From Candidatus Aminicenantes bacterium (GTDB lineage Bacteria > Acidobacteriota > Aminicenantia > Aminicenantales > JAFGBC01), in contig OY969696.1 of NCBI GenBank assembly GCA_963702005.1, forward strand, positions 2,944,001 through 3,008,000: a stretch of DNA of 64,000 nt, read 5' to 3'. Positions 3,696-41,375 of the stretch are shown one piece after another (within the stretch, counting starts at the first letter, position 1; each line of letters begins with the position of its first letter). Below the pieces are notes generated by a model. It saw only the letters and a program-made list of their open reading frames with translations, was not told where the DNA came from and did not search any database. The translations under genes were made by a program, and so were the position numbers.

Positions 3696-5261
3696 ATGGA
3701 ACGGATCGATCCGATCGAGCTCGAGCTCTTCAAGAACATTTTCGTGTCGATCTCGGAAGAGATGGCCGCCGTCCTGGGCCGAACGGCCCTCTCGCCCAAC
3801 ATCAAGGAACGCAAGGATTTCTCCTGCGCCCTGTTCGACGAACGGGGCGAGACCTTCGCCCAGGGGTCCCACATCCCGGTCCATCTGGGGGCGATGCCGC
3901 TTTCGGTCCAGGCGGCGCTCAAGGCCGCCCGGTTCGAGGAGGGCGACCTCGTCGTCCTCAACGATCCCTACCGGGGCGGGACTCATCTTCCCGACATCAC
4001 CTGCGTTTCCCCCGTGTTCGTGGCCGGCCGGCCCCGCTTCTTCGTCGCTAACCGCGCCCATCATTCCGACGTGGGGGGGATGACCCCAGGCTCGATGCCC
4101 CTCGCCGTCGAAATATTCCAGGAGGGCCTGATCATCCCGCCCCTCAAGCTCGTCAAACGGGGCCGGGTCGACGAGGACGTCCTCGGCCTCATCCTCGCCA
4201 ACGTCCGGACGCCCGAGGAGCGCAGGGGGGACCTCCTGGCCCAGATGGCGGCCAACGAGAAGGGAAAACGGCGCGTCGAGGAGACGGTCGTCAAGTATGG
4301 ACTGGCCAAGCTCCGCCGCACGACCGGCCTCATCAGAACATACACCGAGCGCGTTCTGCGCAAAACGCTCCGCGGGATCCCGGAGGGCACCTATACGTTC
4401 AGGGACCGCCTCGACGACGACGGGGTCGGGGGGCGGCCGATCGCCATCCGGGTCGCCGTCACGATCCGCGGAGGCCGCGCCATCGTCGATTTCACGGGGT
4501 CCTCGCCGCAGGTCACGGGGGGCGTCAACGCAAACTTCGCCGTCACGATGTCGGCGGTCCTCTACGTCTTCCGATCGCTGGTCGAGGAGGACATTCCCTT
4601 CAACACCGGACTGATGAGTCCGCTCCGCATCAAGGCCCCGCTCGGCTCGGTCGTCAACGCCGTCTTTCCGGCGGCCACGGCCGGCGGGAACGTCGAGACT
4701 TCGCAGCGGATCGTGGACGTCCTGCTGGGCGCCCTGGCCAAGGCCGTCCCGGACCGCATCCCGGCCGCCAGCTCGGGGACCATGAACAATGTCGCCTTCG
4801 GCGGCCGCGACCCGATTCGGGGAACGCCTTTCGCCTACTATGAGACGATCGGCGGCGGGATGGGGGCGAGCGTCGAGCGGGACGGCCTGGACGGAGTTCA
4901 CACTCATATGACGAACTCCCTCAACACGCCGATCGAGGCCCTCGAGGCTTATCTCCCGATCCGCATCCGCCGTTACGGACTGCGCCGGGGCTCGGGCGGC
5001 CGCGGACGACGGCGGGGCGGCGAGGGGATCGTCCGCGAATACGAATTCCTCGTCCCCTGCCGGGTGACGATCCTCTCGGACCGGAGGCGCTTTCGGCCCT
5101 ACGGCCTCCGGGGCGGGACGCCGGGGGCGCCGGGCCGGAATACGCTCATTTCGGGCGGCCGGGCCATTCCACTTCGGTCCAAGACCAACATCCAGGTCAA
5201 AGCCGGCGACCTCCTCCGGATCGAAACGCCGGGAGGGGGAGGCCTCGGGCGTCCGGGTTGA
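3696..5261 (+). CDS. Hydantoinase B / 5-oxoprolinase family subunit
   Basis: SPNIKERKDFSC, HIPVHLG, NDPYRGGTHLPD, TPGGGG motifs; ATG 3696 just after the A-subunit stop. Confidence 0.92.
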   Translation: MERIDPIELELFKNIFVSISEEMAAVLGRTALSPNIKERKDFSCALFDERGETFAQGSHIPVHLGAMPLSVQAALKAARFEEGDLVVLNDPYRGGTHLPDITCVSPVFVAGRPRFFVANRAHHSDVGGMTPGSMPLAVEIFQEGLIIPPLKLVKRGRVDEDVLGLILANVRTPEERRGDLLAQMAANEKGKRRVEETVVKYGLAKLRRTTGLIRTYTERVLRKTLRGIPEGTYTFRDRLDDDGVGGRPIAIRVAVTIRGGRAIVDFTGSSPQVTGGVNANFAVTMSAVLYVFRSLVEEDIPFNTGLMSPLRIKAPLGSVVNAVFPAATAGGNVETSQRIVDVLLGALAKAVPDRIPAASSGTMNNVAFGGRDPIRGTPFAYYETIGGGMGASVERDGLDGVHTHMTNSLNTPIEALEAYLPIRIRRYGLRRGSGGRGRRRGGEGIVREYEFLVPCRVTILSDRRRFRPYGLRGGTPGAPGRNTLISGGRAIPLRSKTNIQVKAGDLLRIETPGGGGLGRPG

Positions 5262-5332
5262 CCCGTTCGCCGAGGCTCAGGGTTACCCCTATACAAGCCC
5301 CCGCCTGATGGCCGGGGTGTCGAGGGGTTGAC
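5258..5332 (+). repeat. TTGAC-bounded modular repeat, copy 1 (75 bp)
   Basis: TTGACCCGTTCGCCGA...GTGTCGAGGGGTTGAC; same ends as the other five copies. Confidence 0.9.
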
Positions 5333-5357
5333 ATTCAGGCGGCTTTAAAAATAATAT
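5328..5357 (+). promoter_or_regulatory. sigma70-type promoter whose -35 lies in the repeat end
   Basis: TTGACA-N18-TAATAT upstream of ATG 5410. Confidence 0.6.
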
Positions 5358-5409
5358 AGCTATCACGGAGGATTCTTTCCTTCGGGGAATTTGATCAAGA
5401 GGAGGAGGA

Positions 5410-6405
5410 ATGAAAAAAATTCTATATGTCTTTCTGGCCGTCCTCGTTCTTTGCGCGGTCGCCAGCGCTTCCGATGTCATCCTGATCAAGGTCAAAGTTC
5501 AATTGGCCAACGTCCGCACCGAGCCCAACCTCAACGCCCCGGTCGTGACGCAACTCAAGGCCGGGACGCTGCTCGAAGCGAGCGCCAAGAAGGGCGATTT
5601 CTACGAGATCGCGGTCGCCGACGAAAGCGGCAAGATTCTCTCGGGCTACATCCACGCCAACACCGTCGAGGTCGTTCAACAGGCCGCCGAGGAACAGGTC
5701 CAGGAACAACCCGAAGCCGTCCAGGAACAGGCCGTCGAAAAGGAGGCGGCCGAGCAAGAAGCCCCTGAAAAAGAAGCGGCCGAGGAGGCTCCCAAGCCCG
5801 AGGCCGCCGCGGCCGGTTACGAGACCTCTCCTTCAGGGACCGGAATCGGGTTGATGGCCGGCTATGCCATGCCCTCCGGATACGGCGGAGGCCTCGCCTA
5901 CGGAGGAAACTTCACTTTCATGTTCTCGTCCAACTTCGGGATCGAAATCGCGGGCCTGCGCTTTCAAAGCACGGTCGACGAGCCGGCCGAGGCGGACCGG
6001 GAAACGGCTTTGAGTAAGGGGAAACTCAGCGTTATGCCCGTCCAGCTCAGCCTGATCGCCCGCTTCCCGCTCGGTCCTAAGATGATGCCCTATGTCCTGG
6101 CCGGAGGCGGTTATTTCCTCAACAGCTATACCCTCGACTCCGGCGTCAAAAACGATTGGGAGGGCCTGGGGTTTGTCATCAGCGAAAAGGTCGAAAACAG
6201 CGTCGGCTTCCACTTCGGCGCCGGCCTGGACTACTTTTTCACCCCCAAGCTGGCCCTGAGCGCCGTGGTCAAATACTGCATGTCGACCTTCAAGGGAAGC
6301 TGGAGCCTGAAAGAGACCGTCAGCGCGACCGAGGCCAGCGGCGATTTGAAAGACCTGAAGCTGAAGCCGTTCATCTTCGGACTCGGCCTCAAGTATTTCT
6401 TTTGA
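5410..6405 (+). CDS. SH3-domain outer-membrane beta-barrel protein
   Basis: Signal peptide, SH3b-like ANVRTEP...GYIH, acidic linker, amphipathic strands ending GLGLKYFF; strong RBS. Confidence 0.75.
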   Translation: MKKILYVFLAVLVLCAVASASDVILIKVKVQLANVRTEPNLNAPVVTQLKAGTLLEASAKKGDFYEIAVADESGKILSGYIHANTVEVVQQAAEEQVQEQPEAVQEQAVEKEAAEQEAPEKEAAEEAPKPEAAAAGYETSPSGTGIGLMAGYAMPSGYGGGLAYGGNFTFMFSSNFGIEIAGLRFQSTVDEPAEADRETALSKGKLSVMPVQLSLIARFPLGPKMMPYVLAGGGYFLNSYTLDSGVKNDWEGLGFVISEKVENSVGFHFGAGLDYFFTPKLALSAVVKYCMSTFKGSWSLKETVSATEASGDLKDLKLKPFIFGLGLKYFF

Positions 6406-6425
6406 GATTAAAAGGAGCAATTCCC

Positions 6426-8129
6426 ATGACGAACATCATCAAAAGAAATAAGCGGGTTCTCTTGGTTGTTATCGCCTGCGCGGCGGCCCTGACGGCGTTC
6501 CTCCCCTTGAAAGCCCGGGTCCAGGACGGCTGGCGGATTGCCAACCTTCCGCCCCTGGCCGACAACGCCGCGCCGGTCCATCCCAAGCTGGACGGCGCGC
6601 TGAACCGGGTCTACAACCTCTACTTGACCAAAGGCCTGTCCGGCGCCAAGGACTTCATCGGCCAGAGACGCATGATCGATATGGAAGGGGACCTCATCCG
6701 CGCCGTCGCCGTCGGACGGAGGCACGATCCGATAGCCGGCGAGTTCTTAACGACCCGGCTCCAAGCCGGCATCCTTCGCCTGGGCGGGCGCGTCGAAACA
6801 TCGTACCGGGAGCTCGTCCAGTGTTTGGTCCCGATCAACGGCTTGGCCGCGATCGCCGACCTCCCCGACATTGAGCTCCTCAGGCTCCCCCTCAAACCCA
6901 GGCCGCTGGCGGTGACCGTGACCAGCGAGGGCGTTGCCAAGACGGGCGCCGACACATGGCAGTCGGTCAATCCCTACCGGACCTCGGGAGAGGTCAAGGT
7001 CTGCATCCTTGATATAGGCTTCGACGGCTACCAGAGCCGTATCAGCGAAGGCGAGCTCCCCAGCGACGTCACCGTCCACTCGTTCCGTTCGGACGGCAAG
7101 ATCGAGAGCGGGACCGTCCATGGAGCGGCCTGCGCCGAGATCGTCCATGACATGGCCCCCGACGCCAAGCTCTACCTCGTCAACTTCAACACCGAAGTTG
7201 AGCACCACAATGCCGTCGACTGGCTCATCAACGAAGCCAAGGTCAACGTCATCTCCTACTCGGTCGGCTGGACGAACGCCGGAGACGGGAAAGGGACCGG
7301 CCCGATCAATGAAGATGTCAAGAAGGCGTCCCAGGCCGGGATCATCTGGGTAGGCGCATCCGGGAACTACGCTCTGGACCATTGGGAAGGAACCTTCAAG
7401 GACGGCGACCACGACAACTTGCACAACTTCTCCGGCGCCGACGAGATCCTCGACTGGTACGTCCCGGCCCTCTATTATGTGGCCGCCTGGCTGAGCTGGG
7501 ACGACTTCGGGACCTGGGACGGGACGAACTACTCAGGCTCCAACCAGGACTACGACCTCTACCTTTACATCTGGACCGGTTCGAGCTGGAAGTACGTCGA
7601 CAAATCCGTCAACGTCCAGAACGGGGGCGACTGGCCGACCGAATCCGTCGGCTATTGGTACAGCTACTCGTCGACCCGCTGGGGGATCGCCATCAAGAAA
7701 AAGAGCGCGACCCGGGCCTGCAAGTTCGACCTGTTCACGATGGGGAACACCAAGGCCATCGAATACAACGTCCCCGGGGGGAGCCTGAGCAGCCCGGCCG
7801 ATTCGGCCGAGTGCGTTACGGTCGGCGCCACGGACTTTAGTGACGACTCTTACGCAACTTATAGCTCGCGCGGTCCGACCAACGATAACAGGATCAAGCC
7901 GGATTTCTGCGCTCCGACAAGGGTATCGACCGCGTCCTATGGGACCGAGGCTTTCAGCGGAACATCGTCCTCGACGCCCCACGTCGCGGGGGCCTTCGCC
8001 CTGCTCAAGGGGAAGCTCCCCTACAGCCTCAGCCAGATCAACACCATCCTCCAGGGGCGCGCCCTGGACCTGGGGACGGCGGGCAAGGACAATCAGTTCG
8101 GGATCGGACGGCTCAAGCTGACGAAGTAG
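6426..8129 (+). CDS. Secreted S8 (subtilisin-like) serine peptidase
   Basis: Catalytic triad contexts ILDIG, HGAACA, GTSSSTPHVAG; signal peptide; AAAGGAG RBS. Confidence 0.88.
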   Translation: MTNIIKRNKRVLLVVIACAAALTAFLPLKARVQDGWRIANLPPLADNAAPVHPKLDGALNRVYNLYLTKGLSGAKDFIGQRRMIDMEGDLIRAVAVGRRHDPIAGEFLTTRLQAGILRLGGRVETSYRELVQCLVPINGLAAIADLPDIELLRLPLKPRPLAVTVTSEGVAKTGADTWQSVNPYRTSGEVKVCILDIGFDGYQSRISEGELPSDVTVHSFRSDGKIESGTVHGAACAEIVHDMAPDAKLYLVNFNTEVEHHNAVDWLINEAKVNVISYSVGWTNAGDGKGTGPINEDVKKASQAGIIWVGASGNYALDHWEGTFKDGDHDNLHNFSGADEILDWYVPALYYVAAWLSWDDFGTWDGTNYSGSNQDYDLYLYIWTGSSWKYVDKSVNVQNGGDWPTESVGYWYSYSSTRWGIAIKKKSATRACKFDLFTMGNTKAIEYNVPGGSLSSPADSAECVTVGATDFSDDSYATYSSRGPTNDNRIKPDFCAPTRVSTASYGTEAFSGTSSSTPHVAGAFALLKGKLPYSLSQINTILQGRALDLGTAGKDNQFGIGRLKLTK

Positions 8130-8135
8130 GGCGGG

Positions 8136-9005
8136 TCAGAAGGATAAGCGGAGGCCGGTCCGGATAAAGAATCCCGAGAGGTCGATCCGGGCCGGCTTGA
8201 CGTTCGACGACCGGGCGGGGTGGGGTTCGGCGTCGGCCAGGGTCCAGAGCGGATAATTTTTGCCTTCGAGCGTGTAGTCATAGCGCCAGAGGGTTTTCGT
8301 TCCCGACTCGGAATAATCGCCGTTCAGACTCTCCGATCCCTTCAAGGTCCAGGGGCCGCACGGGCCGGAGAAGCGGGCCCAGCGGCCTCCCCCGTCGAGG
8401 ACGATCGAAAGGCCCTTGCCGAGCGCGAAATCGAGACCGAGGCGACCCTGGAGCCCGAGGCAGGTCCCGGATGCCCGCCAGGTCTCCGTCCCTTTGTCCG
8501 TGATCCAGAGGGAGCGGATCGTATAATCCCGCTCCCAGCGGAGCCTGGCAAAGTAGAGCGCGACGCCGCCGTCGGCGTGGGCGGACACGCGTCCCCAAAC
8601 CGGAAGGCGGTAGGCCGCCGTCAGCGTCAAAGGCACCGCGCTCAAGACGGGCCTGACATTTTCCGTGGACTGGACGATCCAGTAGTTGTAATCGATTCCG
8701 CTCGACTTTTGGGCCCGGAGGTAGCCGATGCCGAGGGCCAGGCTGAAACGGGGAGAAAGCTCCGCTTCGACCTCGGCCAGGATGTCGAATCCGGCGGCCG
8801 GGCGGCGCAAAGATCCGGCGACAAGGTCGGCTTCGGCTTTGAGGAGATCGTTCAAGCCCAGGAGCCCCCGGCTGAAATCGCCTCCGTTGACGGACAGCCA
8901 GCCGCCGGTCAGACGGACGCCCCAGCCGCGAATTCCGGCGGACGACGCCGTCGCCAGCAAGGCCAGACCGAGGCTCACGGAATAGATTCGTCTTCCTGCG
9001 TCCAT
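8136..9005 (-). CDS. Outer-membrane beta-barrel protein, unknown function
   Basis: Signal peptide, alternating strands, C-terminal GLRLSF; start moved to ATG 9005 (GGAGG RBS) because the longer ORF begins inside the repeat. Confidence 0.7.
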   Translation of the reverse strand: MDAGRRIYSVSLGLALLATASSAGIRGWGVRLTGGWLSVNGGDFSRGLLGLNDLLKAEADLVAGSLRRPAAGFDILAEVEAELSPRFSLALGIGYLRAQKSSGIDYNYWIVQSTENVRPVLSAVPLTLTAAYRLPVWGRVSAHADGGVALYFARLRWERDYTIRSLWITDKGTETWRASGTCLGLQGRLGLDFALGKGLSIVLDGGGRWARFSGPCGPWTLKGSESLNGDYSESGTKTLWRYDYTLEGKNYPLWTLADAEPHPARSSNVKPARIDLSGFFIRTGLRLSF

Positions 9006-9072
9006 CACGGCGTCCTCCCTGGATTTCCTCGTCTCGAGTCTCAGCCCTTTATAGCGGAAGGGAGGGGGGCGT

Positions 9073-9243
9073 GTCAAACCCTCGACACTCATACTAAGCC
9101 GTTTCCGGCTTAGTATGAGTGCTGCAAGGCTGGGCTTGGCCAGGGTTAACCCTGAGCCGCGCTTATCGTCCCCGCTTTGAAAGGCGGGGCTCCGATTTTA
9201 AGCCCCGCCTTTCAGGGCGGGGTAGCGTCGGCGAACGGGTCAA
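9073..9243 (-). repeat. TTGAC-bounded modular repeat, copy 2 (171 bp)
   Basis: GTCAAACCCTCGACAC...GCGTCGGCGAACGGGTCAA; 16-bp perfect stem 9086-9121; inverted hairpin doublet 9170-9222. Confidence 0.92.
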
Positions 9244-9290
9244 TCGGACCAGGCCGTCGGCCCCCCCGGGGGCGTTGAAGACCGTTCAGG

Positions 9291-9319
9291 TTGGCAGCCC
9301 CTCCCCTTTCTGATATAAT
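9291..9319 (+). promoter_or_regulatory. sigma70-type promoter
   Basis: TTGGCA-N17-TATAAT upstream of GTG 9346. Confidence 0.55.
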
Positions 9320-9345
9320 TTTTGGGGAGCGGGAAGGAAAGGAAC

Positions 9346-10704
9346 GTGCCGTCCATCAATATTCTTGTCGTCGAGGATGAAAAACTCGTCGCCAAAGATA
9401 TCAGCAACATCCTGAAACACATCGGCCACCGGGTCGTTGATATCGTCACGACCGGCCAGGACGCTCTTCGCAGGGTCGAGGAAACCGGCCCCGACCTGGT
9501 CCTGATCGATATCGTCCTGAAGGGCGCCCTGGACGGAATCGCCACGGCCGGACTCATCCAGGAGCGCTTCAGGATCCCCGTCATCTATCTGACGGCTTAC
9601 GCCGACGATACGACTCTGGCCCGGGCCAAGGTCACCGAGCCGTTCGGCTACATCCTCAAGCCCTTCGACGAGCGGGACATCAAGACGGCCATCGAAATGA
9701 TGACCTATAAGGCCCGGATGGACCGCACCCTCCGTGATCGCGAAAAATGGCTGGCGACCATCCTCCGTTCGATCGTCGACGGCGTCATCGCCGTCGACGC
9801 CGCCGGCCGGGTGACTTTCATGAACACGCTGGCCGAGGTCTTGACGGGACGCCCCCTGGCCGAGGGGGCCGGTCAATCCATCGAGAGCGTCGTCCGGATC
9901 TCTCCGGAGCTGGGGACCTCCTCGCAGAGCGAGGCCCTCCTGACGAGCGGGGACGGCCGGCAATACACCATCGAATCGCAGACGTCGCCCATCCTGGACA
10001 TGAGCGGCCAAAAAGCGGGATACGTATTCGTCTTCCGCGACATCAGCCAGCGCCAGAAGACCGAGTACGAGCTCCAGCGGAGCTGGGAACAGATCAAGAA
10101 GAGCCTATCCGGTATCGTCCGGGCCATCTCGCAGATGACCGAAATGCGGGACCCCTACACGGCCGGCCATCAGCGCCGTGTCGCTCAGCTTTCTTCCGCC
10201 ATCGCCAAGGAGATGGGGCTTCACAACGACCAGGTCGAAGGGATCCGTCTGGCCGGGGAAATCCACGACATCGGAAAGATTCACGTCCCCGCCGAAATCC
10301 TCAGCAAGCCCGGCCGCCTGACCCCCGTCGAGTTTGCCCTGATCCAGACCCACGCCCAGGCCGGCTATGAGATTCTGAGGTCGATCGAATTCCCCTGGCC
10401 GATCGCCCAGATCATCTGGCAGCACCACGAACGGCTCGACGGATCGGGCTATCCCAACCGGGTCAAGGGACGGGAGATCCTGCTCGAAGCCCGCATCCTG
10501 AGCGTCGCCGACGTCGTCGAAGCCATGTCCTCGCATCGCCCCTACCGGCCCGCGCCCGGCGTCGCCAAGGCGCTGGAGGAGATCGACCACAACAAGGACA
10601 AGCTCTATGACTCCGATGTCGTGGAAGCCTGCACCGCCCTGTTCAGGGCGGGCCGTTTCGCTTTTGACGGGCCAAAACTCTCCTCCGGCGACCACTCGTC
10701 TTAG
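9346..10704 (+). CDS. REC-PAS-HD-GYP response regulator / cyclic dinucleotide phosphodiesterase
   Basis: VVEDE receiver, PAS segment, RDPYTAGHQRRV, HDIGKI, HHERLDGSGYP. Confidence 0.9.
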   Translation: MPSINILVVEDEKLVAKDISNILKHIGHRVVDIVTTGQDALRRVEETGPDLVLIDIVLKGALDGIATAGLIQERFRIPVIYLTAYADDTTLARAKVTEPFGYILKPFDERDIKTAIEMMTYKARMDRTLRDREKWLATILRSIVDGVIAVDAAGRVTFMNTLAEVLTGRPLAEGAGQSIESVVRISPELGTSSQSEALLTSGDGRQYTIESQTSPILDMSGQKAGYVFVFRDISQRQKTEYELQRSWEQIKKSLSGIVRAISQMTEMRDPYTAGHQRRVAQLSSAIAKEMGLHNDQVEGIRLAGEIHDIGKIHVPAEILSKPGRLTPVEFALIQTHAQAGYEILRSIEFPWPIAQIIWQHHERLDGSGYPNRVKGREILLEARILSVADVVEAMSSHRPYRPAPGVAKALEEIDHNKDKLYDSDVVEACTALFRAGRFAFDGPKLSSGDHSS

Positions 10705-11876: not shown

Positions 11877-11923
11877 GGCCTGCACTTTAGACAAATTCGC
11901 CGCCCTTGTCAACGCCGCCCGAC

Positions 11924-12409: not shown

Positions 12410-12413
12410 GATC

Positions 12414-17924: not shown

Positions 17925-17927
17925 GGA

Positions 17928-20213: not shown

Positions 20214-20296
20214 GTCAACCCTTCGACACCCATACTAAGCCGTTTTCGGCTTAGTATGATTACTGCAAGGCTGGGTAGCGTCGGCGAACGGGTCAA
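20214..20296 (-). repeat. TTGAC-bounded modular repeat, copy 3 (83 bp)
   Basis: Near-identical to copy 4; overlaps the TGA of the 20293 gene. Confidence 0.93.
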
Positions 20297-23577: not shown

Positions 23578-23654
<77 letters not shown>

Positions 23655-29768: not shown

Positions 29769-29829
29769 CGGTCTAGTCCCCTTTCTCGATTGGCTTGTAG
29801 GACCGATGATAAAACACGCGGGGAGCCAA

Positions 29830-29912
29830 GTCAACCCTTCGACACTCATACTAAGCCGTTTCCGGCTTAGTATGAGTACTGCAAGGCTGGGTAGCGTCGG
29901 CGAACGGGTCAA
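29830..29912 (-). repeat. TTGAC-bounded modular repeat, copy 4 (83 bp)
   Basis: GTCAACCCTTCGAC-[15-bp stem 29844-29877]-ACTGCAAGGCTGGGTAGCGTCGGCGAACGGGTCAA. Confidence 0.93.
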
Positions 29913-31506: not shown

Positions 31507-31646
31507 AGTCCCGCCCGGATCATGTTATTGGCGCTGAAGGCAGTCTTCTTTTCGAGTTCTTTTCTCGTCTCCCGCTTTTCGGCCCGCCCTGATTCATGAA
31601 GATTGATCGCGAGGCGAGACTTACTCTATCGCCGGGGAGGATCGAT

Positions 31647-31907
31647 GTCAACCCCTCGACTCCCCGGCCGAAGCTCCACGGACTAATGCTCATTGGAGCG
31701 CCAGTACTCATGAACCGTTTCCGGTTCATGAGTGCATGAATGCCAGGGCTTGTTCGGGGTTAACCCTGAGCCCACTCAGCCCCATCCCGTCCAAAAGGGC
31801 TGAGTACAAAAGTGTCGCTTCTCGTCCCCGCCTTTCAGGGCGGCACCCACGAACCGTTCCCGGTTCATGAGTACTGCAAGGCTGGGTGGCGTCAGCGAAC
31901 GGGTCAA
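31647..31907 (-). repeat. TTGAC-bounded modular repeat, copy 5 (261 bp, composite)
   Basis: Same ends; two ACTCATGAACCG-type hairpins plus GGGTTAACCC and CCGCCTTTCAGGGCGG modules. Confidence 0.92.
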
Positions 31908-32632: not shown

Positions 32633-32662
32633 CCGATCCTCCTTCATCCGATAGTCTCGCCG

Positions 32663-35071
32663 CTAAAAGCTCCCGGGCGCCGTGAGACCCCGGGCCAACA
32701 GGGACAGAATTTCCAGAAGATAACGATCATAGTTAAACAGTATAAAACCGCCCGTTTTTTGCTTCCGCGTTTCAAGAATCTGGACGATGACCCGGTCGAC
32801 CGGAAGCGATTCGCTCGAAGCCCCGATCCCGGGACGGACCGGCACCCGGCCGCCCACCTGATGGATTTGACGCCGGACGGATTCGGCGAAAGCGGTCGAA
32901 TCCGATGTATAGTCCATGGGCAGGACAAAATCGAGGTAGCCCGCGCGGACCCAGCTCAGCCAGTCCTGGCCGACCGATTCCCGGCAGTCCGGATAATCCG
33001 AGAAAACGGCGGCCGAGATCCGGACGGCCGGCTTGATCGTCTTGACGCGATCGTGGACGTCCTTGACCAGCCGCGTGATCTGCAGGCAGCGCCAGTCCCG
33101 ATACTCCTGCCGGAGCGAGCCGCTATAACAGTCCATCGGCCAGTCGGAAACGGCCTTTCCACGGTAGGCTTCAAACCGCTTCCGGCATCCTCCGCAATAG
33201 CAGGTCGTATCGTCGGGATAGCGGATATAGTCAAAATGAATGCCGTCCACGTCATAATGGCTGACGACCTCGAGGAGCGAATCCCGTTCCAGGGCTTCGT
33301 TGAGGGGGTTCGAAGGGCAGAGCCAATCGACGTCGTTCCCGTAAGCATCGACTTGGGTCCGGTCGGCCGCTCTCATCTCGCGGATGAACGACGGCGGCGC
33401 CGAGAAAAGATTCCAGTCGACCTTCCAGACATGCATTTCCAGCCCGGCCGACCGGCAGGCGGCCAGACACTGGGCGACCTGGTCGCCATAACGGCGGAAT
33501 TCATCCGAGCGGGGAAGAAGCTTCGACGGATAGTGGGCTCGACCGCCGTCCAGCATGTTTGGAAAAACGGCGCCGAAGCCGCTCCCCTTCAACTCCCGAG
33601 CCGAGCGCGGCCAATCGCCCGGCCAGACGCCCGTGCCCGTATGATTCCAAACGGCGCGGAACTCCCCCGTCCGCGGGCGCTGGCAGAGAGCATAGGCTTT
33701 GACAAGAGCCTCATGCGCGGCGAAGGCCGGGGACAGCACGGCCGGGTAACGTTTCTGGGCAAAGGCCGTCTTCGCGGTCGTCCATGAATTCTCGGCCGCC
33801 GCGAGCGCGTCTGCCACGTCCTTGGGGTTGAGACTGGCCGGGCCGAGCTTTGCGATCCCGGCATACGCCTGCTCGAAGCTTTTATAAAGGGCGACTTCTC
33901 CCAAGACGTCCAGGACCCCACGGGCGATGCCCGGGGCGACTTCGGGCGCATCGTGCATGAGCAGGGCCAGGATCATCTGCTGCTTCCCGAGCGGATCGTC
34001 CGTCAACAGAACATGCGACATGTAAGAGCCGTGAGGGCCGTTCAGCAAAGCGGGATAATCCAGGATTTTTCCGCTGTCGTCCTCCCAGCGGGCCAGGACT
34101 TTCGTGGCCGACTGCGAGGACGCTACGATCATGAAATTCCAAGACGCCTGCAAAACGCGCTTGGGCATTCCCGGCAGTCTCATCGTGAATGACAGGGCGC
34201 TGACTTCGGTCTCGGTCCAATCCGTCTGGTCGACGCCGAGAAGGTCCGTGATCCGGTCATCGATGTCGTAGAAGGCCCAGACCTTTCCGCCTCCGGCGAT
34301 GAAGGTTCGGACGCGGTCGACCTCGCCGTCGGACAGGGCGCCGTTGTAGGGAAAGATAGCGAGCCGCGAACCGGCCAGACCGCCGGACTCGACATCCCCG
34401 TCGGAGATCTCGCCGAAAGAGACCTTGAACCGGGTCAGCCATTCCCGGAAAGGTCGGATGTACTCATCCCCCTCCTCATCCGATCCGCGGGCTCGCACGA
34501 TCGTTACGGACGGGCTGTAGGCCCAGAGACGGTCCGCATAGATCACGGTATCTTGCGAAGTCGAACGCCAGGGCGAGAGCCGAATCGCGTCGATCCGATC
34601 CCATCCGGCCGGATCATCTTCCGTGGCGAAATCGCCCTTCTGGAAAACGAGCGTGTTCCAGCCGGAGCCCCCGATGTCCTGACTCTCGGCGTACCAGCCG
34701 AATTGACTGTGAAAATAGAGGGTCACGACATCCACGGGTCCCGGGTTCGAACAATACAGGCGCAGCGCGAAGCACTGATAGCCGCTGAGGTCAAGCGACA
34801 CGGTCCGGTCCCAATAGCTGCGCTCGCGATCGGAGCCGGTGAAATCGCAGGGAAACACGCCGAGAAGCTGAGAGCCCCAGGGCCCGCTTTTCGCGATTTC
34901 GGTCTGCGGCGACCCCGGGCCGCTCTGCCAAGCGGCCCTGATCGCCGCCGCCGTCGGATAGCTGAAGGTATCTATCTCAAGGCCCAGGGAAGCGGCGGCC
35001 GAGATTAAAACGATCAGCAACCCGCCCAGCGGCGCCGCCCACGCCGGAAATCGATTCGATCCCTGAATCAT
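32663..35071 (-). CDS. Secreted glycoside hydrolase-like protein (GHL10/DUF187-type C-terminal domain)
   Basis: EFRAVW, YDVDGIHFDYIRYP, ISAAVF, QDW..W...GYLDFVLPMDY; signal peptide. Confidence 0.78.
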   Translation of the reverse strand: MIQGSNRFPAWAAPLGGLLIVLISAAASLGLEIDTFSYPTAAAIRAAWQSGPGSPQTEIAKSGPWGSQLLGVFPCDFTGSDRERSYWDRTVSLDLSGYQCFALRLYCSNPGPVDVVTLYFHSQFGWYAESQDIGGSGWNTLVFQKGDFATEDDPAGWDRIDAIRLSPWRSTSQDTVIYADRLWAYSPSVTIVRARGSDEEGDEYIRPFREWLTRFKVSFGEISDGDVESGGLAGSRLAIFPYNGALSDGEVDRVRTFIAGGGKVWAFYDIDDRITDLLGVDQTDWTETEVSALSFTMRLPGMPKRVLQASWNFMIVASSQSATKVLARWEDDSGKILDYPALLNGPHGSYMSHVLLTDDPLGKQQMILALLMHDAPEVAPGIARGVLDVLGEVALYKSFEQAYAGIAKLGPASLNPKDVADALAAAENSWTTAKTAFAQKRYPAVLSPAFAAHEALVKAYALCQRPRTGEFRAVWNHTGTGVWPGDWPRSARELKGSGFGAVFPNMLDGGRAHYPSKLLPRSDEFRRYGDQVAQCLAACRSAGLEMHVWKVDWNLFSAPPSFIREMRAADRTQVDAYGNDVDWLCPSNPLNEALERDSLLEVVSHYDVDGIHFDYIRYPDDTTCYCGGCRKRFEAYRGKAVSDWPMDCYSGSLRQEYRDWRCLQITRLVKDVHDRVKTIKPAVRISAAVFSDYPDCRESVGQDWLSWVRAGYLDFVLPMDYTSDSTAFAESVRRQIHQVGGRVPVRPGIGASSESLPVDRVIVQILETRKQKTGGFILFNYDRYLLEILSLLARGLTAPGSF

Positions 35072-35117
35072 GCTGGCTTAATCCTGCCGTCGTTATGATG
35101 CCGCGCGGCTCTATTTT

Positions 35118-35208
35118 TTTATACAGGTTGCCCGTGAGCCTGTCAATCTCCCGAGTTTTCTCACGGCGCCGGCCTGAATTGACAACCCTTTCTGTCTCGT
35201 TCTATCAT
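35118..35208. promoter_or_regulatory. Divergent sigma70 promoters
   Basis: Minus: TTGACA-N17-TATAAA 35146-35118; plus: TTGACA-N18-TATCAT 35179-35208. Confidence 0.65.
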
Positions 35209-35216
35209 CCGTTGGG

Positions 35217-35375
35217 ATGAAAAAAGGCCAAGCCGTCTTCCTTGTCGCCGCTCTTAGGATCTTGGCATCGCCGGGATTCGCTCATCTCACAATCGCCCGG
35301 GGTGGAAAAGCCCTGGCCGCGGTGGTTGTCGCCGAAAAGGCCTCCGAAACAGAGCGCCGGGCGGCCTGTCAATGA
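35217..35375 (+). pseudogene. Truncated paralog of the N-terminus of the 36014 DUF4838 gene
   Basis: 52 aa ...IARGGKALAAVVVAEKASETERRAA aligns with IARGGRAVAAVVVSENASATELQAA. Confidence 0.75.
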
Positions 35376-35376
35376 A

Positions 35377-35871
35377 TTATCGACTCGGCCTCGTGAATCC
35401 TACCGATAGGCCAGCCCAGATCTGGAAACCTTCATTGGGATGATAATAAGGAGTCAGGCCGAGACGAAACAGCAGGCCCCCTCGAGTCGTCAGGCGCAAT
35501 CCCAAAAAACTTCCCCAAGTCAACCGATGTCCTCTAAAATTCTCCATTAAAAAGTAGTCATCTCTGTAGACAATAACGGGACCGATACCGGCCTCGAAGC
35601 CGCGGTCGACAAACGAAACCATCATCAACAGGCTGCCCAATCCCCCGCCTGCTCGAAGACAGACCTGTTCGTTCATCATGTATTCCACATTAAAGCTGCC
35701 GTAGATCCCGGTTCCCAAGGCCTCGAAATAGACTCCGCCCGCACCCTTGCGGGATTGGGCCGCAAAGGTGGAAACCGAGAGCGCCGCCGTCAAGAAGAAA
35801 ATGAGCACGATCGGCTCCCCCGCGGATCCAAGCGAAAAGGTCTTGACTAGATTAAGTGCGCTTTTAGTCAT
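35377..35871 (-). CDS. Hypothetical exported beta-strand-rich protein, lower GC
   Basis: Hydrophobic N-terminus, Gly/aromatic strands (FRLGLTP, WAGLSVGF); visibly more AT-rich than neighbours. Confidence 0.6.
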   Translation of the reverse strand: MTKSALNLVKTFSLGSAGEPIVLIFFLTAALSVSTFAAQSRKGAGGVYFEALGTGIYGSFNVEYMMNEQVCLRAGGGLGSLLMMVSFVDRGFEAGIGPVIVYRDDYFLMENFRGHRLTWGSFLGLRLTTRGGLLFRLGLTPYYHPNEGFQIWAGLSVGFTRPSR

Positions 35872-36013
35872 AACTTCCCCCAAATATTTTTACTACGAAT
35901 CTTCCCCGTCAGTCAATTTTTTTTATCCGGCTGGCCGAGGCTTGCGAAGAAGGTATCTGCGCTTGTATTTAAAGCCGCATGGAAATATCATCGGTTACAG
36001 GTAGGAGAGAATC

Positions 36014-37807
36014 ATGGTCCCGATAAGATCCGTGAAAACGTTCGTGCTGGTGATCATCGCCGTATTGATCTTGACGACGGCCGGTGCGGCCCAGATCGTC
36101 ATCGCCCGGGGCGGCCGAGCCGTCGCCGCGGTGGTTGTTTCGGAAAACGCATCCGCGACGGAGCTTCAAGCGGCACGGGAGATCGCTTTTTTCCTCCACA
36201 TTGTGACCGGCGGCGACTTCGCGATCGTCAGCGCCGCCCCGCCGTCAAGGCCCAGGCTGCTCGTGGGAGAGGGCGCAGCCCGAATCGCCGACCCGGCCTT
36301 CGCGGCTGCGTCCCTGGCGCCGGAGGAAATCCTCATCCGTTCCGCCGGCGGCGATCTCATCCTCGCCGGCGGCAGCCCGCGCGGAACGCTCTATGCCGTC
36401 GAGACGTTCCTCGAAGACGTCGTCGGCTGTCGCTGGTGGACGTCGACGGCCAGCCATATCCCATGGAAGCCGACGCTGAATATCGGCCCCCTCTCCGTTC
36501 GCTATGCTCCGCCCCTCGAATACCGCGAACCCTTCTGGTACGTCGCCTTCGACGACATCTGGTCGGCCCGGAACAAGGCCAACGGCATTCGCTCCGGCGG
36601 AAACGACCTCTACGGCGGGAGGCATATTTACGAGGGCTTCGTCCACACCTTCTACCCGCTCATCCCCCCCGAGAAATACTTCAAGGACCACCCCGAATGG
36701 TTCGGCGAGATCAACGGGCGGCGAACGGGCGAGAACGCCCAGCTCTGCCTGACCAACGAGGAGATGAGGCGGGAGCTGGTCAGGAACCTCAAGGAGCGGC
36801 TGCGCCTCAATCCCAAAGCCACCATCGCCTCGGTCTCGCAGAACGACTGTTTCAATCCCTGCGCCTGCCCGCTCTGCCGGGCCGTGGATGAAGAGGAAGG
36901 GAGCCCGTCGGGCCTTCTCCTCCGCTTCGTCAACGCCGTCGCCGCGGACATCGAGGAGGAGTTTCCCGGCGTCGCGATCGACACCCTCGCCTATCAGTAC
37001 ACCCGTAAGCCGCCCAGGATCACCCGGCCGCGTCCCAACGTCATCGTCCGGCTCTGCAGCATCGAATGCTCCTTCAGCAGACCCCTCGACGACGAAACCA
37101 ACAAGGCATTTTACGACGACCTCAAAGGGTGGTCGGCGATCGCCGACCGGCTGTTTATCTGGGACTATACGACCGACTTCTCCCACTACATCCAACCCCA
37201 TCCCAACACCCGGGTCCTCGGCCCGAACATCAGGCTCTTCGTCCGGAACAAGGTCCGGGGGATCTTCGAGCAGGGCGCCTACCAATCCTGGGGGTCGGAG
37301 ATGGCCGAGCTTCGAGCTTGGATGCTGGCCAAGCTCCTCTGGAACCCGACGCTCGACCCCTCGAAGCTAAGAGGGGAATTCATCAAGGGGTATTACGGCC
37401 GGGCGGCCGGCCGCATTTCGGCTTACCTGGACCTCCTCGACGGGGCCGTCCAGGCCGCCGGGGATAACATGGGCTGCTACTCGCCGCCCGATGCCAAGTT
37501 CCTATCCCTGGACACTCTCGTCCGGTCCTGGGATATCCTGAAGGAAGCTGAGGGCAGCGTCCGGGGGACGATCGAATACGCCAGCCGTATCAGACGCGTT
37601 CAGATGCCCGTCGTCTATGTCGTCCTGGCCAAATGGGATGCCCTCCGCAAGGAGGCCCAAGACCGGAGACTGGCTTGGCCGTGGATGTCCGGGAGGGCGG
37701 AATGGCTCGACTGGTTCCTCAAGGCCGCCCGGGCCGAGGGCGTCACGATGATCTCCGAGTGGCAGACCTTGGACGACTGGGCAAGCAAGGGCGGCCAGGC
37801 CCGCTGA
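36014..37807 (+). CDS. DUF4838-domain secreted protein (glycoside hydrolase-like)
   Basis: RGTLYAV..FLE..GCRWW, HTF..L..P..YF.DHPEWF, QLCLTN, SQND, TLAYQYT motifs. Confidence 0.8.
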   Translation: MVPIRSVKTFVLVIIAVLILTTAGAAQIVIARGGRAVAAVVVSENASATELQAAREIAFFLHIVTGGDFAIVSAAPPSRPRLLVGEGAARIADPAFAAASLAPEEILIRSAGGDLILAGGSPRGTLYAVETFLEDVVGCRWWTSTASHIPWKPTLNIGPLSVRYAPPLEYREPFWYVAFDDIWSARNKANGIRSGGNDLYGGRHIYEGFVHTFYPLIPPEKYFKDHPEWFGEINGRRTGENAQLCLTNEEMRRELVRNLKERLRLNPKATIASVSQNDCFNPCACPLCRAVDEEEGSPSGLLLRFVNAVAADIEEEFPGVAIDTLAYQYTRKPPRITRPRPNVIVRLCSIECSFSRPLDDETNKAFYDDLKGWSAIADRLFIWDYTTDFSHYIQPHPNTRVLGPNIRLFVRNKVRGIFEQGAYQSWGSEMAELRAWMLAKLLWNPTLDPSKLRGEFIKGYYGRAAGRISAYLDLLDGAVQAAGDNMGCYSPPDAKFLSLDTLVRSWDILKEAEGSVRGTIEYASRIRRVQMPVVYVVLAKWDALRKEAQDRRLAWPWMSGRAEWLDWFLKAARAEGVTMISEWQTLDDWASKGGQAR

Positions 37808-37827
37808 TTCTCAGGATCGGCCCGAAC

Positions 37828-38307
37828 TCATTCGCGCGGGTCCAGCAGCGCACAATCCCGTCGAACCCCGCGAATCGCGGTTAGAACAATGATTAAAAGG
37901 CCCCACCCAAAGTACAGAATGTGAAGAAAGGCCACTGACCGGAGCAGCGCCACCTCAACCGTGATCCAAACGATCAAGATCACGCCGGCCGCTAACGAAG
38001 CGGCCCAACTCCAGTGAACTCGCTTAAACGGATTAAGCGCTTCCGGCCAACGCCAGCGCGGCCTCTTCCATAGAGCATAGGCAACGGCCATAGGAAAGAT
38101 CCCGTTTAGGGAGAACAAAATAGCGCCCGGCATAAGAAAATTTCGGAAGGGGGAATATTTCAGCATGCTGATGGGCATCTTGAGCAAATGCCCATCAGGG
38201 GCAACCATCAACGCCCCGCCGCCCGCCAAGGCCCCCAAGCTTAAAAGAATCAGGAGAAGCATCAATAGCCGCACGACGGCGGGGCTGCGATCGCCGTCAT
38301 TTTTCAT
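37828..38307 (-). CDS. Hypothetical four-TM membrane protein, lower GC
   Basis: GALAGG..PDG..SPF.NFL.PG pattern; AAGGAG RBS. Confidence 0.7.
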   Translation of the reverse strand: MKNDGDRSPAVVRLLMLLLILLSLGALAGGGALMVAPDGHLLKMPISMLKYSPFRNFLMPGAILFSLNGIFPMAVAYALWKRPRWRWPEALNPFKRVHWSWAASLAAGVILIVWITVEVALLRSVAFLHILYFGWGLLIIVLTAIRGVRRDCALLDPRE

Positions 38308-38350
38308 TTCCGGACGCTCCTTATAACGGGAATTTTCTCCCTAAGAAAAA

Positions 38351-38739
38351 AAACGGCTGGAGGGGGACATAAGCCGAATTCTGTTCCCGCGTGAACGGGG
38401 GCGGTTATTTATCTGGCCGGCCGGTTGCCCGGACGGTCCTGCGGCCTACCCACCCCTTCGGACGGGCCGTCCTCGAACGGGGTCTCTTTGGCCTTGCTCC
38501 GGATGGGGTTTGCCGTGCGCCCCGTGTCGCCACGAGGCCGGTGAGCTCTTACCTCGCCGTTTCACCCTTGCTCCTCCCGGGCCCGGAGGCCCGCGAGGGG
38601 CGGTCTGGTCTCTGTGGCACTTTCCCCCGGTCGCCCGGAGTCGCCGTTAGCGACCATCCTGCCCTATGGAGTTCGGACTTTCCTCCCCCTCCTCCTCAGT
38701 CGGAGGAAGGAGCAACCGCCTCGCCCACTCCAGCCGTTT
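38351..38739 (-). ncRNA. rnpB: RNase P RNA, type A
   Basis: GAGGAAAGTCCG, GGAAAGTGCCACAGA, GGGTGAAACGG..GGTAAGAGC, GGAGCAAGGC, AACAGAATTCGGCTTA; complementary ends AAACGGCTGGAG/CTCCAGCCGTTT. Confidence 0.97.
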
Positions 38740-38762
38740 AAAACTTACCAGTTCTTATTCTC

Positions 38763-38791
38763 TTTATACAGGTTACCGCACGACGTGTCAA
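38763..38791 (-). promoter_or_regulatory. rnpB promoter
   Basis: TTGACA-N17-TATAAA just upstream of rnpB. Confidence 0.7.
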
Positions 38792-38980
38792 TCGCCGCTG
38801 AGGGCTTCCTAGCGCGGACGGGATGGCGGGCATAATCCCTCAGGTCCGGCCGGCGTGCCGCTGATTGACTTCTATTTCCGGCTATGTTAGTTTTTTTTTA
38901 TGGGGGCAAATATCAAAGCTATCGGCTTTCGGTCGTTTTCTTATTTGATCCCCATCATTTCCATCTCCTACGGAGGCCCC

Positions 38981-41083
38981 ATGAAAAGAGCCATGGTCTT
39001 TTTCGGTTTGGCGTTGGCCGTCCTGGCGCCGGCATCATTTCCCTTCCCTCCAGGGCCTCCGTTCGATTCCCCTCAGGCCTATTCCTCGGTGCCCGATTTT
39101 GGGAGCATCCCCCTGCATTTCATCCCGAACAGCGGACTTTATGACGCCCCGGCCTTGTTCTATGCCAGGACATCCCGCTACACTCTGTGGCTGACGAAGA
39201 ACGGCCTGGTGTTTGACGTCATGAGCCGTCGGGCTTCCGGCGCCCCGGCCGAGAGGAGCGTCTCGAGGCTTGAATTCCGCGGGACGAACCCCGATCCGGA
39301 TGTCGTGGCCGCGGATCCCTCCGAATACAGGGTCAGCTATTTCGAGGGGAACGACCCCAGCCGCTGGCTAACGGGCATCCCAACCTCCTCGACGGTCGTC
39401 TATCGCGGGGTCTACCCTCGGATCGACCTTAAGATCTACGGAGTCGAGCGCGAAGTCGAGTACGACTGGGTCGTGAAGCCGGGCGGTGACCCGGCCCTCA
39501 TCCGATTCGTCTACGAGGACGCGCAGCGGACGGACATTGAAAAGGACGGGAGCCTTGTCGTTGAGGCGGGGCTCGGCGGCTTCAAACACGGCAAGCCCGT
39601 GGCCTATCAAATAATCGAGGGCCGCCGGAGGACGGTCGAGGCCGCCTTCATGAAGGCGGGAAAAAACGAATACGGAATCAAGCTCGGTTCCTACGATAAA
39701 TCCCTTGATTTGATTATCGACCCCTATATCATGGCCTATGCCAGCTACCTGGGGGGGTCGCTGACCGAGTCGGTCGGCGGACTGGTCGTCGACGGCGAGG
39801 GCGCCATCTATATCGCCGGTTATACCTCAAGCCCCAATTTTCCCGCTCCCTCCCGATCGGCCGCGGCCAGGAGCGACGAATTTGTCACGAAGATCTCTCC
39901 GGACGGCACCTCCCTTGTCTATACGGCGTTTTTAGGGATCGGAGCGATCGATAAATATTTCGAGCTGCCCGGGCTCGCCGTCGACGCGGCCGGAGCAGCC
40001 TATCTCGCCGGCATGACGGGATCTCCGAATTTTCCGGTCAAGAACGCGTTCCAGAAAAAATACGGCGGCGGACTCCATGACGGCTATGTGGCCAAGATCG
40101 CCCCCGACGGCAAAAGCCTCGTCTATTCGAGCTACCTGGGCGGGGACGGAGCGGACACCTGCCTGTCGATCGCCGTCGACGCCAAGGGCGCCGCTTATGT
40201 CACGGGCTATGGCGGGAGTTCGAACCTTCGCATGAAAAACCCCTTCCAAGAAAAGAATTCCGGCCTTAACGACGGCTTCGTCAGCAAGGTGGCCCCGAAC
40301 GGAAAGAGCCTGGTCTATTCCACCTATATCGGCGGCACGCTCGACGAGTGGACCCAGGGCATCGCCGTGGACAGCTTCGGCGCCGCCTATATCGCAGGGC
40401 TCACGGAAAGCCATGACTTTCCCTTGAAGAATCCCTATCAGAAGGCCAATAAGGGTTCGGGCGACCTCTTCATCACGAAATTCGCACCGGACGGCCAGAG
40501 CCTCGTCTTTTCCACCTTATTGGGCGGGCCGGGCTATGACGAGGTCTTGGTCATCGCCCTGGGCGCGGGCGGAACCGTCTATATCGCGGGGCATACCGAG
40601 GGCGCCTTCCCGCTGAAGAAACCCTTCCAGCCGGCCCGCAAAGGCCCGACGGACGCGATCGTGGCCGAACTCGCGGCGGACGGCCAAAGCCTTGTCTTCT
40701 CGACCTACCTGGGCGGCAGCGGGGAGGATTGGTGCAACGGGTTGGCCGTGGACCGCGACGGGGCGGTCCTTGTGACGGGGGAGACGGGAAGCTCCAATTT
40801 TCCCAAAAAGGACGCGTGCCAGCCGATCAAAAAGGGGGACTATGACGCCTTCGTGACGAAATTCTCGCCAACCGGCCAAAGCCTCCTGTTTTCGACATTT
40901 CTCGGCGGGTCCGGCTCGGATTTCGGCTTCCGGATCGCCGCCGGCGTGGGCGGAGAGATCTATGTCGCCGGCCGCACGAACAGTCTCGGCTTCCCCCTCC
41001 TCAAGCCCTATCAAAAGAAATATGGCGGCGGCGACTACGACCTGTTCCTCTCGAAATACGACTCAATTTCGCGGACGAGATGA
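38981..41083 (+). CDS. SBBP beta-propeller repeat surface protein
   Basis: Repeated K.SPDG.SLV(Y/F)S(T/S)YLGG...IAVD..GA.Y.AG.T.S.NFP units; signal peptide; GGAGG RBS. Confidence 0.85.
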   Translation: MKRAMVFFGLALAVLAPASFPFPPGPPFDSPQAYSSVPDFGSIPLHFIPNSGLYDAPALFYARTSRYTLWLTKNGLVFDVMSRRASGAPAERSVSRLEFRGTNPDPDVVAADPSEYRVSYFEGNDPSRWLTGIPTSSTVVYRGVYPRIDLKIYGVEREVEYDWVVKPGGDPALIRFVYEDAQRTDIEKDGSLVVEAGLGGFKHGKPVAYQIIEGRRRTVEAAFMKAGKNEYGIKLGSYDKSLDLIIDPYIMAYASYLGGSLTESVGGLVVDGEGAIYIAGYTSSPNFPAPSRSAAARSDEFVTKISPDGTSLVYTAFLGIGAIDKYFELPGLAVDAAGAAYLAGMTGSPNFPVKNAFQKKYGGGLHDGYVAKIAPDGKSLVYSSYLGGDGADTCLSIAVDAKGAAYVTGYGGSSNLRMKNPFQEKNSGLNDGFVSKVAPNGKSLVYSTYIGGTLDEWTQGIAVDSFGAAYIAGLTESHDFPLKNPYQKANKGSGDLFITKFAPDGQSLVFSTLLGGPGYDEVLVIALGAGGTVYIAGHTEGAFPLKKPFQPARKGPTDAIVAELAADGQSLVFSTYLGGSGEDWCNGLAVDRDGAVLVTGETGSSNFPKKDACQPIKKGDYDAFVTKFSPTGQSLLFSTFLGGSGSDFGFRIAAGVGGEIYVAGRTNSLGFPLLKPYQKKYGGGDYDLFLSKYDSISRTR

Positions 41084-41261
41084 CATGATTAGACGCCCGA
41101 AAGGGCCTTCCGTCGTCAGCGGCCCTCCCGCCCGGGGGAGCCGGGGCTCTCCTCCTCGTCCGAGGCGGGACCGCCCGCCTCTCCCATTCCAACCGTTATA
41201 CTAATTCCTTACGGCCCTCATTTCTCATACAAGTTACGGCGCGGCCTGTCAATCTCTCTCA

Positions 41262-41375
41262 TTGACCCGTTCGCCGACGCCACCCAGCCTTGCAGTACTC
41301 ATGAACCGGGAACGGTTCGTGGGTGCCGCCCTGAAAGGCTGCACTCATGGCTTCCATAAGTGTCGAAGGGTTGAC
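41262..41375 (+). repeat. TTGAC-bounded modular repeat, copy 6 (114 bp)
   Basis: TTGACCCGTTCGCCGACGC...GTGTCGAAGGGTTGAC; first ~75 bp nearly identical to the reverse complement of the right part of copy 5. Confidence 0.93.

Follow-up and report, generated by a model that had tools for sequence, protein, structure and literature searches.

The stretch of DNA examined here, which we call the window, comprises 64,000 nucleotides of the genome of a Candidatus Aminicenantes bacterium (assembly GCA_963702005.1; bases 2944001-3008000 of the single 4.31-Mb contig OY969696.1, 60.4% G+C). It carries six copies of a short, gene-less element with fixed ends and variable interiors. The left-end 16-mer TTGACCCGTTCGCYGA has six matches in the window, all with 0 mismatches, against 0.14 expected, and 0 of 100 shuffled sequences reached six. 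The right end, GTCGA(A/G)GG(G/T)TTGAC, closes six of six copies, and beyond these six the window showed neither another copy nor a partial end. The family to which these copies belong is mobile, and its right end coincides with predicted promoter −35 boxes, a point that is absent from the initial annotation of this DNA, which was made from the sequence alone.

All six copies listed in that annotation were confirmed by reading the sequence; copies 1 and 6 lie on the plus strand and copies 2-5 on the minus strand. Its inventory of four interior modules, A to D, holds as well, with two additions, a D-like hairpin in copy 1 and the shared modules E and X in copy 5. Copy 1 (5258-5332, +, 75 bp) consists of the C module and one D-like hairpin (CCCCCGCC..GGCCGGGG). 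The target pentamer TTGAC at 5258-5262 (+) belongs to the flank, and the element proper occupies 5263-5332 (+), with its own terminal TTGAC at 5328-5332. Outside the element, at 5350-5357 (+), there is a −10-like hexamer, either AATAAT at a spacer of 16 or TAATAT at a spacer of 18 from the TTGACA at 5328-5333, which together form a predicted promoter; an open reading frame starts downstream at 5410. Copy 2 (9073-9243, −, 171 bp) is composed of modules D0, D1, C and B+A, and is bounded by its target pentamer at 9239-9243 and the element-borne TTGAC at 9073-9077 (both −). The −10-like TATAAA at 9048-9053 (−), 18 bp past the right-end TTGACA, completes another predicted promoter.

Copies 3 (20214-20296, −) and 4 (29830-29912, −) are both 83-bp B+A forms, with right-end TTGAC at 20214-20218 and 29830-29834, respectively. 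Past the right end of copy 3 we found no convincing −10 (best 3/6), and it is the exception among the six; past copy 4, a predicted promoter is formed with TATCAT (29806-29811, −), 17 bp beyond TTGACT. The longest copy, copy 5 (31647-31907, −, 261 bp, right-end TTGAC 31647-31651), is built from a 113-nt scaffold with B+A in the arm of hairpin D1, module E, and module X in the loop of hairpin D2, and the −10-like TAGAGT (31623-31628, −) lies 17 bp past its TTGACA. Copy 6 (41262-41375, +, 114 bp) has its right-end TTGAC at 41371-41375 and the −10-like TATATT (41395-41400, +) 18 bp past TTGACT, which brings to five of six the window copies with a −10-like hexamer beyond the right end.

Family size, junctions and mobility

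The genome-wide search for the end motifs that the initial annotation had proposed returned 82 exact left ends and 151 at up to two mismatches. Family similarity continues past the 16-mer in 132 of the 151 and is lacking in 19, which gives a family of ~132 copies, 68-361 bp long, with size peaks at 75, 83 and 111-113 bp. An exact right TTGAC is present in 112 copies, corresponding to 107 distinct right ends, because five pairs are arranged head-to-tail. The 83-nt form alone accounts for 12 copies. Six of the fourteen copies of the 112-nt form are identical and the others are at most 2 substitutions away, and this near-identity is the mark of a recent burst.

Among 41 genomes of the order, counted at up to one mismatch, left ends number 117 in this genome and 166 in G001, a genome of the same genus, while two genomes of another family of the order (G005 and G025) have 24 and 14. 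The element is abundant (at least 14 left ends) in only 4 of the 41. In the other family of the order the same 113-nt core is found, with different, lineage-specific inserts. Among the matches listed for a 19-mer search (one genome per species), the 19-mer together with family sequence occurs only under assembly labels of Candidatus Aminicenantes/Aminicenantia, one Acidobacteria and one Eubacteriales; the listed matches in other taxa were set aside as chance occurrences within coding sequence. Rfam holds no family for the element: at gathering score the window scan matched only a class A RNase P RNA (38355-38731, −, 270 bits) and one tRNA (23581-23654, −), and copies 2 and 5, scanned at permissive settings, yielded nothing beyond hairpin noise that scored far under the threshold. 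No description of the family was found in the literature searched, supplements aside, nor was the left-end 14-mer. On comparison with Rfam and this literature the family appears to be new; it is mobile and non-autonomous and behaves like a derivative of IS200/IS605, although no matching transposase was found.

Mobility had been proposed in the initial annotation, and it is borne out by the burst of near-identical copies and by empty orthologous sites with a single pentamer, which were found both in relatives and in a near-identical strain. Copy 1 is absent from the orthologous promoter in G001 and in G002 (same genus), where a single TTGACATT is kept. Copy 2 is absent from one metagenome contig (run X3, record 17) that is ~96% identical over 3.8 kb; this contig joins 9077 to sequence like 9244-9262, and one GTCAA remains. 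In the four DNA runs the contigs for the most part end at elements, and stretches without coverage are uninformative. We further examined 34 copies of G001, of which 15 have both flanks collinear in this genome; these comprise 8 clean empty sites, 3 sites occupied in both genomes and 4 ambiguous ones. In 8 of the 8 clean cases, removing CCGTTCGCC...TTGAC while keeping the left pentamer restores collinearity, and the junction falls exactly after the left pentamer. A G001 copy with an empty counterpart here is seen in the window at 34980-34992 (−; genome 2978980-2978992), an unoccupied site with the pentamer TTGAG, whose G001 orthologue is TTGAC with a 185-bp copy. The spacers of window copies 2 and 4 are too diverged in G001 for clean alignment; at copy 4 the orthologous spacer lacks the element and reads TTGACT-N17-TACCAT, in a poor alignment.

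The left junction lies between TTGAC and CCGTTCGCC, and the right end runs D2..GTCGAGGGGTTGAC up to the junction. The left pentamer is TTGAC in 88 of the 112 copies with an exact right TTGAC, so that these have TTGAC on both sides. It differs in the remaining 24 (CTGAC, ATGAC, GTCAC and others), and in 0 of the 24 does it match the right pentamer. One empty/full pair has CTGAC as left pentamer on the occupied and the empty side alike, with the TGA stop of the upstream gene inside it, while the empty site lacks the right TTGAC. In the five tandem pairs the neighbours have one TTGAC in common. From the junctions, the deviant pentamers and the tandem pairs it follows that the TTGAC on the left is the target, that the one on the right is element-borne, and that target duplication is absent. 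The terminal TTGAC had been described as a direct repeat, which has to be corrected: of the two pentamers only the right one is element sequence, and the left one is flank. The targeting of TTGAC itself stands, since the target logo shows no conservation upstream of the pentamer and, downstream, only at the next base (A 43%, T 48%, G 0%).

Promoter-like context and replication-strand bias

The sigma-70 −35 hexamer has TTGAC as its core. The element ends ...GGGGTTGAC, which puts its terminal TTGAC at the position of a −35 box. At 72 of the 107 right ends, a match to TATAAT of at least 4/6 is found at a spacer of 16-18, outside the element. With the same −10 criterion, the background is 11% for 9554 genomic TTGAC, 32% for 1982 intergenic TTGAC outside elements, and 52% for 924 intergenic TTGAC[AT]. 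TAnnnT is present beyond 50% of right ends, compared with 6.5% of all TTGAC, and the A+T content reaches its maximum, 66-76%, precisely over +23 to +30 past the right ends. In addition, 87 of the 107 right ends (81%) are directed towards the start of a gene on their own strand (median distance 65 bp), and 17 of the 107 are inside called genes.

At the sites of copies 1 and 4, the empty G001 alleles consist of TTGAC(A/T), a spacer and a −10-like hexamer (with the poor alignment mentioned above for copy 4). Because these alleles show such −35/−10-like pairs, the predicted promoter appears to be older than the element. The context TTGAC(A/T)-N17-TAnnnT is found also at copies in the other family of the order.

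To describe the orientation of the copies relative to replication, we placed the origin at ~0.47 Mb and the terminus at ~2.76 Mb from GC skew. The top strand of the element lies on the lagging-strand template for 111 of 132 copies (84%). Gene orientation does not account for this bias, because genes (1769 of 3317, 53%) and unoccupied promoter-like TTGACW sites (251 of 479, 52%) are co-oriented in little more than half of the cases (Fisher odds ratio 4.8, p = 9e-12, for copies against unoccupied sites).

Interior modules, nested insertions and candidate enzymes

Alignment of ten size classes yielded one scaffold with clean block insertions. A 38-nt D1 block converts the 75-nt form to the 113-nt form; the other inserted blocks are the 31-nt D0, the 42-nt E, and the 67-nt X, which lies in a hairpin loop, and the B+A block is inserted in the 5′ arm of D1 or D2. 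Growth by nesting of modules, as the initial annotation had suggested, agrees with these block-wise insertions into a common scaffold. At window positions 9191-9224, 32 bases (one D hairpin block) are lacking from a form seen in contigs of runs X3 and X4; this form may belong to copy 2 or to a look-alike copy, and may reflect module variation at the strain or copy level.

In the 113-nt form, hairpin D1 is located 18 nt inside the left junction and D2 15 nt before the right end. The whole folds as two domains hinged on a central palindrome, GGGTTAACCC, of whose halves the left one base-pairs with TGACCC of the left junction and the right one with the hexamer that precedes TGAC at the right end. 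This right-end hexamer covaries with the C module, in the combinations AATCAT/ATGATT, AACCCC/GGGGTT, AATCCT/AGGATT and ATCCCT/AGGGAT. The own pairs of the C/right-end stem form on average 5.4 Watson-Crick pairs, versus 4.1 for mismatched classes, and the stem is supported because of these compensatory variants. The stem between the left half of GGGTTAACCC and the left junction is invariant in sequence, and hence uninformative on covariation. RNAalifold on the 113-nt class picked a local 3′ hairpin over the C/right-end stem, which was tested per sequence instead.

Other mobile elements have inserted into the family. Every copy of an IS110-family element (343-345 aa, PF01548 + PF02371) lies in or beside a family element: the full copies are at 2353905-2355313, 3155965-3157379, 3583726-3585186 and near 4077115-4077543, and a fragment is at 988626-988928 (loci L001-L003). 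In all four full copies the insertion point follows ..ATGAG, where hairpin module A has its foot, and both orientations are represented. At the IS110 ends there is an inverted repeat, ATGAT(A/G)GCGAAACGC, which has a look-alike, CTGCGAAACGCCTGC, among the modules of some elements. Judged from these positions, the family elements serve as landing pads for IS110. An IS481-like element (346 aa, rve_3 + HTH_32) lies at 2815400-2816659 (L262), inside the right end of a 113-nt copy and with an AGGGG duplication, and has a second copy at 1352977-1354090. A related IS481-like transposase adjoins an element end in a public assembly (L192), and a TGTACTC stub like that of the IS481-like element is found also after another copy, at 4072940.

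No cognate enzyme had been noticed in the window by the initial annotation. The genome does encode HUH enzymes of the Y1 type, with 14 Y1_Tnp matches that divide into 11 near-identical IS200-like copies and three RAYT-like genes, and none of these has the element's ends. The IS200-like copies encode a 147-aa TnpA (e.g. 1259969-1260409; loci L005-L012), and close relatives of this protein occur in this genome (G000), G001, G017 and G019. In the six copies whose flanks were read, the IS200-like element is inserted in another repeat (GCACTTTGTGACAAAGTGTAGGTTTGACCCCG, ~52 copies) after TTGCAC, and its own end is TTTAC; with a flank ...TTGCAC and an own end ...TTTAC, it follows the same logic as the family. 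Its 11 copies are all on the plus strand at 0.72-2.08 Mb and all on the minus strand at 2.58-3.78 Mb, a replichore pattern like that of the TTGAC elements; the minus copies at 2.58 and 2.61 Mb precede the terminus estimate of 2.76 Mb and fit only with a terminus at ~2.5-2.6 Mb.

The RAYT-like genes are flanked by GTCGTGTGTCCCCAGAATTATT (64 copies), by GCACTTTGTGACAAAGTGTAGGTTTGACCCCG (~52 copies) and, in the third case, by a single-locus repeat. Inverted copies of the GTCGTGTGTCCCCAGAATTATT repeat flank the RAYT-like gene at 2326423-2327076, and one copy of it lies in the window at 44630-44651 (+). The REPtron arrangement, in which repeats of the family under study would flank a RAYT gene as inverted copies, was not found at the three RAYT-like genes, and repeat/RAYT co-occurrence fails, with a RAYT2-like protein in 22 of 41 genomes and the element abundant in 4 of 41. 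In G001, the similarity of a RAYT2-like gene (G001:C140:1519-2337, L155) ends after residue 244, where an element copy lies (C140:2252-2337), and the element seems to have interrupted this Y1 gene.

The copy enclosing or abutting a cognate HUH or TnpB gene that the initial annotation had proposed to look for was not found. Neither the genome nor the 80 public loci scanned yielded a full-length relative that shares these ends and carries a Y1 TnpA gene, and the genome has no TnpB (PF07282). An IS91-type Y2 domain (PF04986) gave one short match (4152795-4153148, −) in a 223-aa open frame, with no catalogued element ends nearby, and is probably a fragment. Several candidates were considered and rejected. 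Pairs of left and right ends 1409-1461 bp apart, taken as possible autonomous copies, are IS110-family insertions inside module A. A right-end variant ...GGGGTGTAC beside a transposase, taken as a possible partner, is the IS481-like element (rve_3), which has inverted repeats of its own and the AGGGG duplication. The RAYT2 repeat has GGTTTGACCCC in common with the right-end/left-end junction, with no further link found and with the failed co-occurrence. Finally, simple guide/cleavage-site pairing rules of IS608 gave no fit by eye.

Mechanism, alternatives and implications

We consider it somewhat probable (about 0.6) that this is a non-autonomous, gene-less family moved as single-stranded DNA, in the manner of IS200/IS605, by a Y1 enzyme acting in trans. 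An HUH Y1-type transposase would make two top-strand cuts, one 3′ of the TTGAC-like pentamer that flanks the element on the left and one 3′ of the TTGAC with which the element ends. The strand so released would be joined, without target duplication, to the 3′ side of a different TTGAC that lies exposed in the lagging-strand template. Insertion in a −35 box would place a fresh TTGAC before the old spacer and −10. Since the pentamer is the −35 core and the element ends in it, the promoter would therefore be rebuilt and the insertion tolerated, and from the sequence context we infer that such rebuilt promoters would work. The terminal TTGAC of the element would itself be a target, giving head-to-tail arrays, and interiors would lengthen as smaller hairpin modules insert, at a later stage, into the arms and loops of hairpins.

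Insertion 3′ of a specific pentanucleotide, without duplication and with a preference for the lagging-strand template, is given in PMC5027513 as the signature of IS200/IS605 single-strand transposition. We infer the single-strand "peel and paste" mechanism and the enzyme class because the pentamer target, the lack of duplication and the lagging-strand bias match this signature; the IS200/IS605-like character suggested in the initial annotation thus gains support from the last two. TTGAC is also the predicted target-adjacent motif of one TnpB-bearing IS200/IS605 member, according to PMC12415229. The family resembles IS200/IS605 elements and their gene-less derivatives (palindrome-associated transposable elements, PATEs) in these three properties, and its canonical form has a hairpin near each end. 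It differs from them in that no autonomous partner with its ends was found, its short forms have a single hairpin, its right-end cleavage motif is at once the target and the −35 core, and its interior is heavily nested and modular. Miniature inverted-repeat transposable elements (MITEs) of the Correia/ERIC type are likewise short, abundant, structured and intergenic, and can carry promoter parts. They have terminal inverted repeats and duplicate TA or a similar target, whereas the family fails on both counts. Some insertion sequences carry an outward −35 at one end that pairs with a −10 in the target to form a hybrid promoter (PMC9330008). There the hybrid promoter is an occasional by-product that activates silent genes. 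The present family, in contrast, targets the −35 itself, with like-for-like replacement at ~2/3 of sites, and is miniature and without transposase.

Several observations weigh against this mechanism. The forms of 68-83 nt have a single hairpin yet are numerous, and the ends are weakly complementary to each other; the recognition determinant may be the ends rather than two subterminal hairpins. The enrichment of promoter-like sequence over unoccupied TTGAC[AT] is modest (67% vs 52%), and the gene calls (3317), made for this analysis, are crude. Tandem and nested copies are not independent counts. The pentamer in this genome differs from that of G001 in 7 of the 8 empty sites, which is compatible with divergence and ascertainment, yet not clean. 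As for the enzyme, the 11 IS200-like copies have ends unlike those of the element, and the three RAYT-like Y1 genes are flanked by different repeats of their own. A close IS200-like TnpA was not found in the element-bearing G005 and G025 and is present in the element-free G017, the RAYT2-like protein occurs in many relatives without elements, and no left-end..right-end pair encloses a Y1 gene in this genome or the 80 public loci scanned.

Among the alternatives, the copies could be host-maintained repeats of the kind of repetitive extragenic palindromes (REPs) and bacterial interspersed mosaic elements (BIMEs), spread mainly by recombination or gene conversion, or by a domesticated RAYT-type enzyme, and retained upstream of promoters through binding of a regulator or nucleoid protein or through an effect on promoter activity. 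The likeness to REP/BIME/REPIN systems with their RAYTs lies in the high-copy intergenic hairpin mosaics and in the presence in the genome of Y1 HUH genes without insertion-sequence features (PMC3333891 and PMC6006769). The mosaic interior, the three RAYT-like genes, the constant placement just upstream of −35 boxes, the central palindrome and the conservation of the 113-nt core across two families of the order would all fit. We nevertheless think this unlikely, as it is other repeat families, of 64 and ~52 copies, that flank the RAYT-like genes, and the family's copies stand upstream of gene starts (81%) in a set orientation, with fixed asymmetric ends and no inverted pairs. Moreover, there are precise empty and full sites at the pentamer and near-identical dispersed copies, 17 of 107 right ends are inside called genes, one copy in G001 seems to interrupt a RAYT2-like gene, and the replication-strand bias points to transposition rather than recombination.

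That last bias is also not predicted if the mover were a site-specific or RNA-guided recombinase (the resident IS110, or some tyrosine or serine recombinase) with TTGAC as crossover core, which we hold to be quite unlikely. Such a mover, too, would leave one pentamer per side with no true duplication. After IS110-type recombination the core stands on either side, and the observed junctions would result if crossover took place at the 3′ edge of TTGAC; all IS110 copies, four full and one fragment, are moreover inside or beside family elements. However, these copies sit inside module A after ..CATGAG and have unrelated ends of their own (GTAACATGATAGCG...CATCATAGAAG), which makes the element their target, and a target conserved over five bases plus A/T is too little for a site specified by a guide RNA. 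A classical DDE-derived MITE, with terminal inverted repeats and a 5-bp TTGAC duplication, would account for TTGAC on both sides in 88 of 112 copies and for the partial complementarity of the left end (ACCCGTTCG) to the right end (CGAAGGGT). This explanation, the most improbable by far, is refuted by what the junctions show: in 0 of 24 cases does a deviant left pentamer have its counterpart on the right, tandem copies have one pentamer and not two, and an empty CTGAC corresponds to a full CTGAC...TTGAC. The sole DDE element at an element end, the IS481-like one, has its own inverted repeats and AGGGG duplication. A further possibility, rather unlikely but to be taken more seriously than these, is a dedicated promoter-homing transposon, which would use the −35 hexamer as a safe harbour and bring a replacement −35, and whose enzyme would be either of the Y1/RAYT class without the flanking signature or of a class new to such elements.

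If promoter homing is true, the family would occupy a few percent of the genome's promoters. At each of them the sequence upstream of the −35, such as UP elements and activator sites, would be displaced by 70-360 bp and a shared structured module substituted, so that the family could rewire regulation genome-wide. Under the IS200/IS605-like mechanism favoured above, it would be a clear natural case of a transposon that targets a core promoter motif and mends the damage with its own end, which would explain how a selfish element can reach more than 100 copies in a 4.3-Mb genome in front of genes. Matched occupied and empty promoter alleles would be usable for measuring the effects of upstream sequence on promoter strength. 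The hallmarks of single-strand transposition (pentamer target, no duplication and lagging-strand bias) would be extended to an uncultured lineage, and the nested modules, together with the IS110 and IS481-like insertions, show the elements in the role of landing pads, by which further mobile DNA is gathered at a distance from genes.

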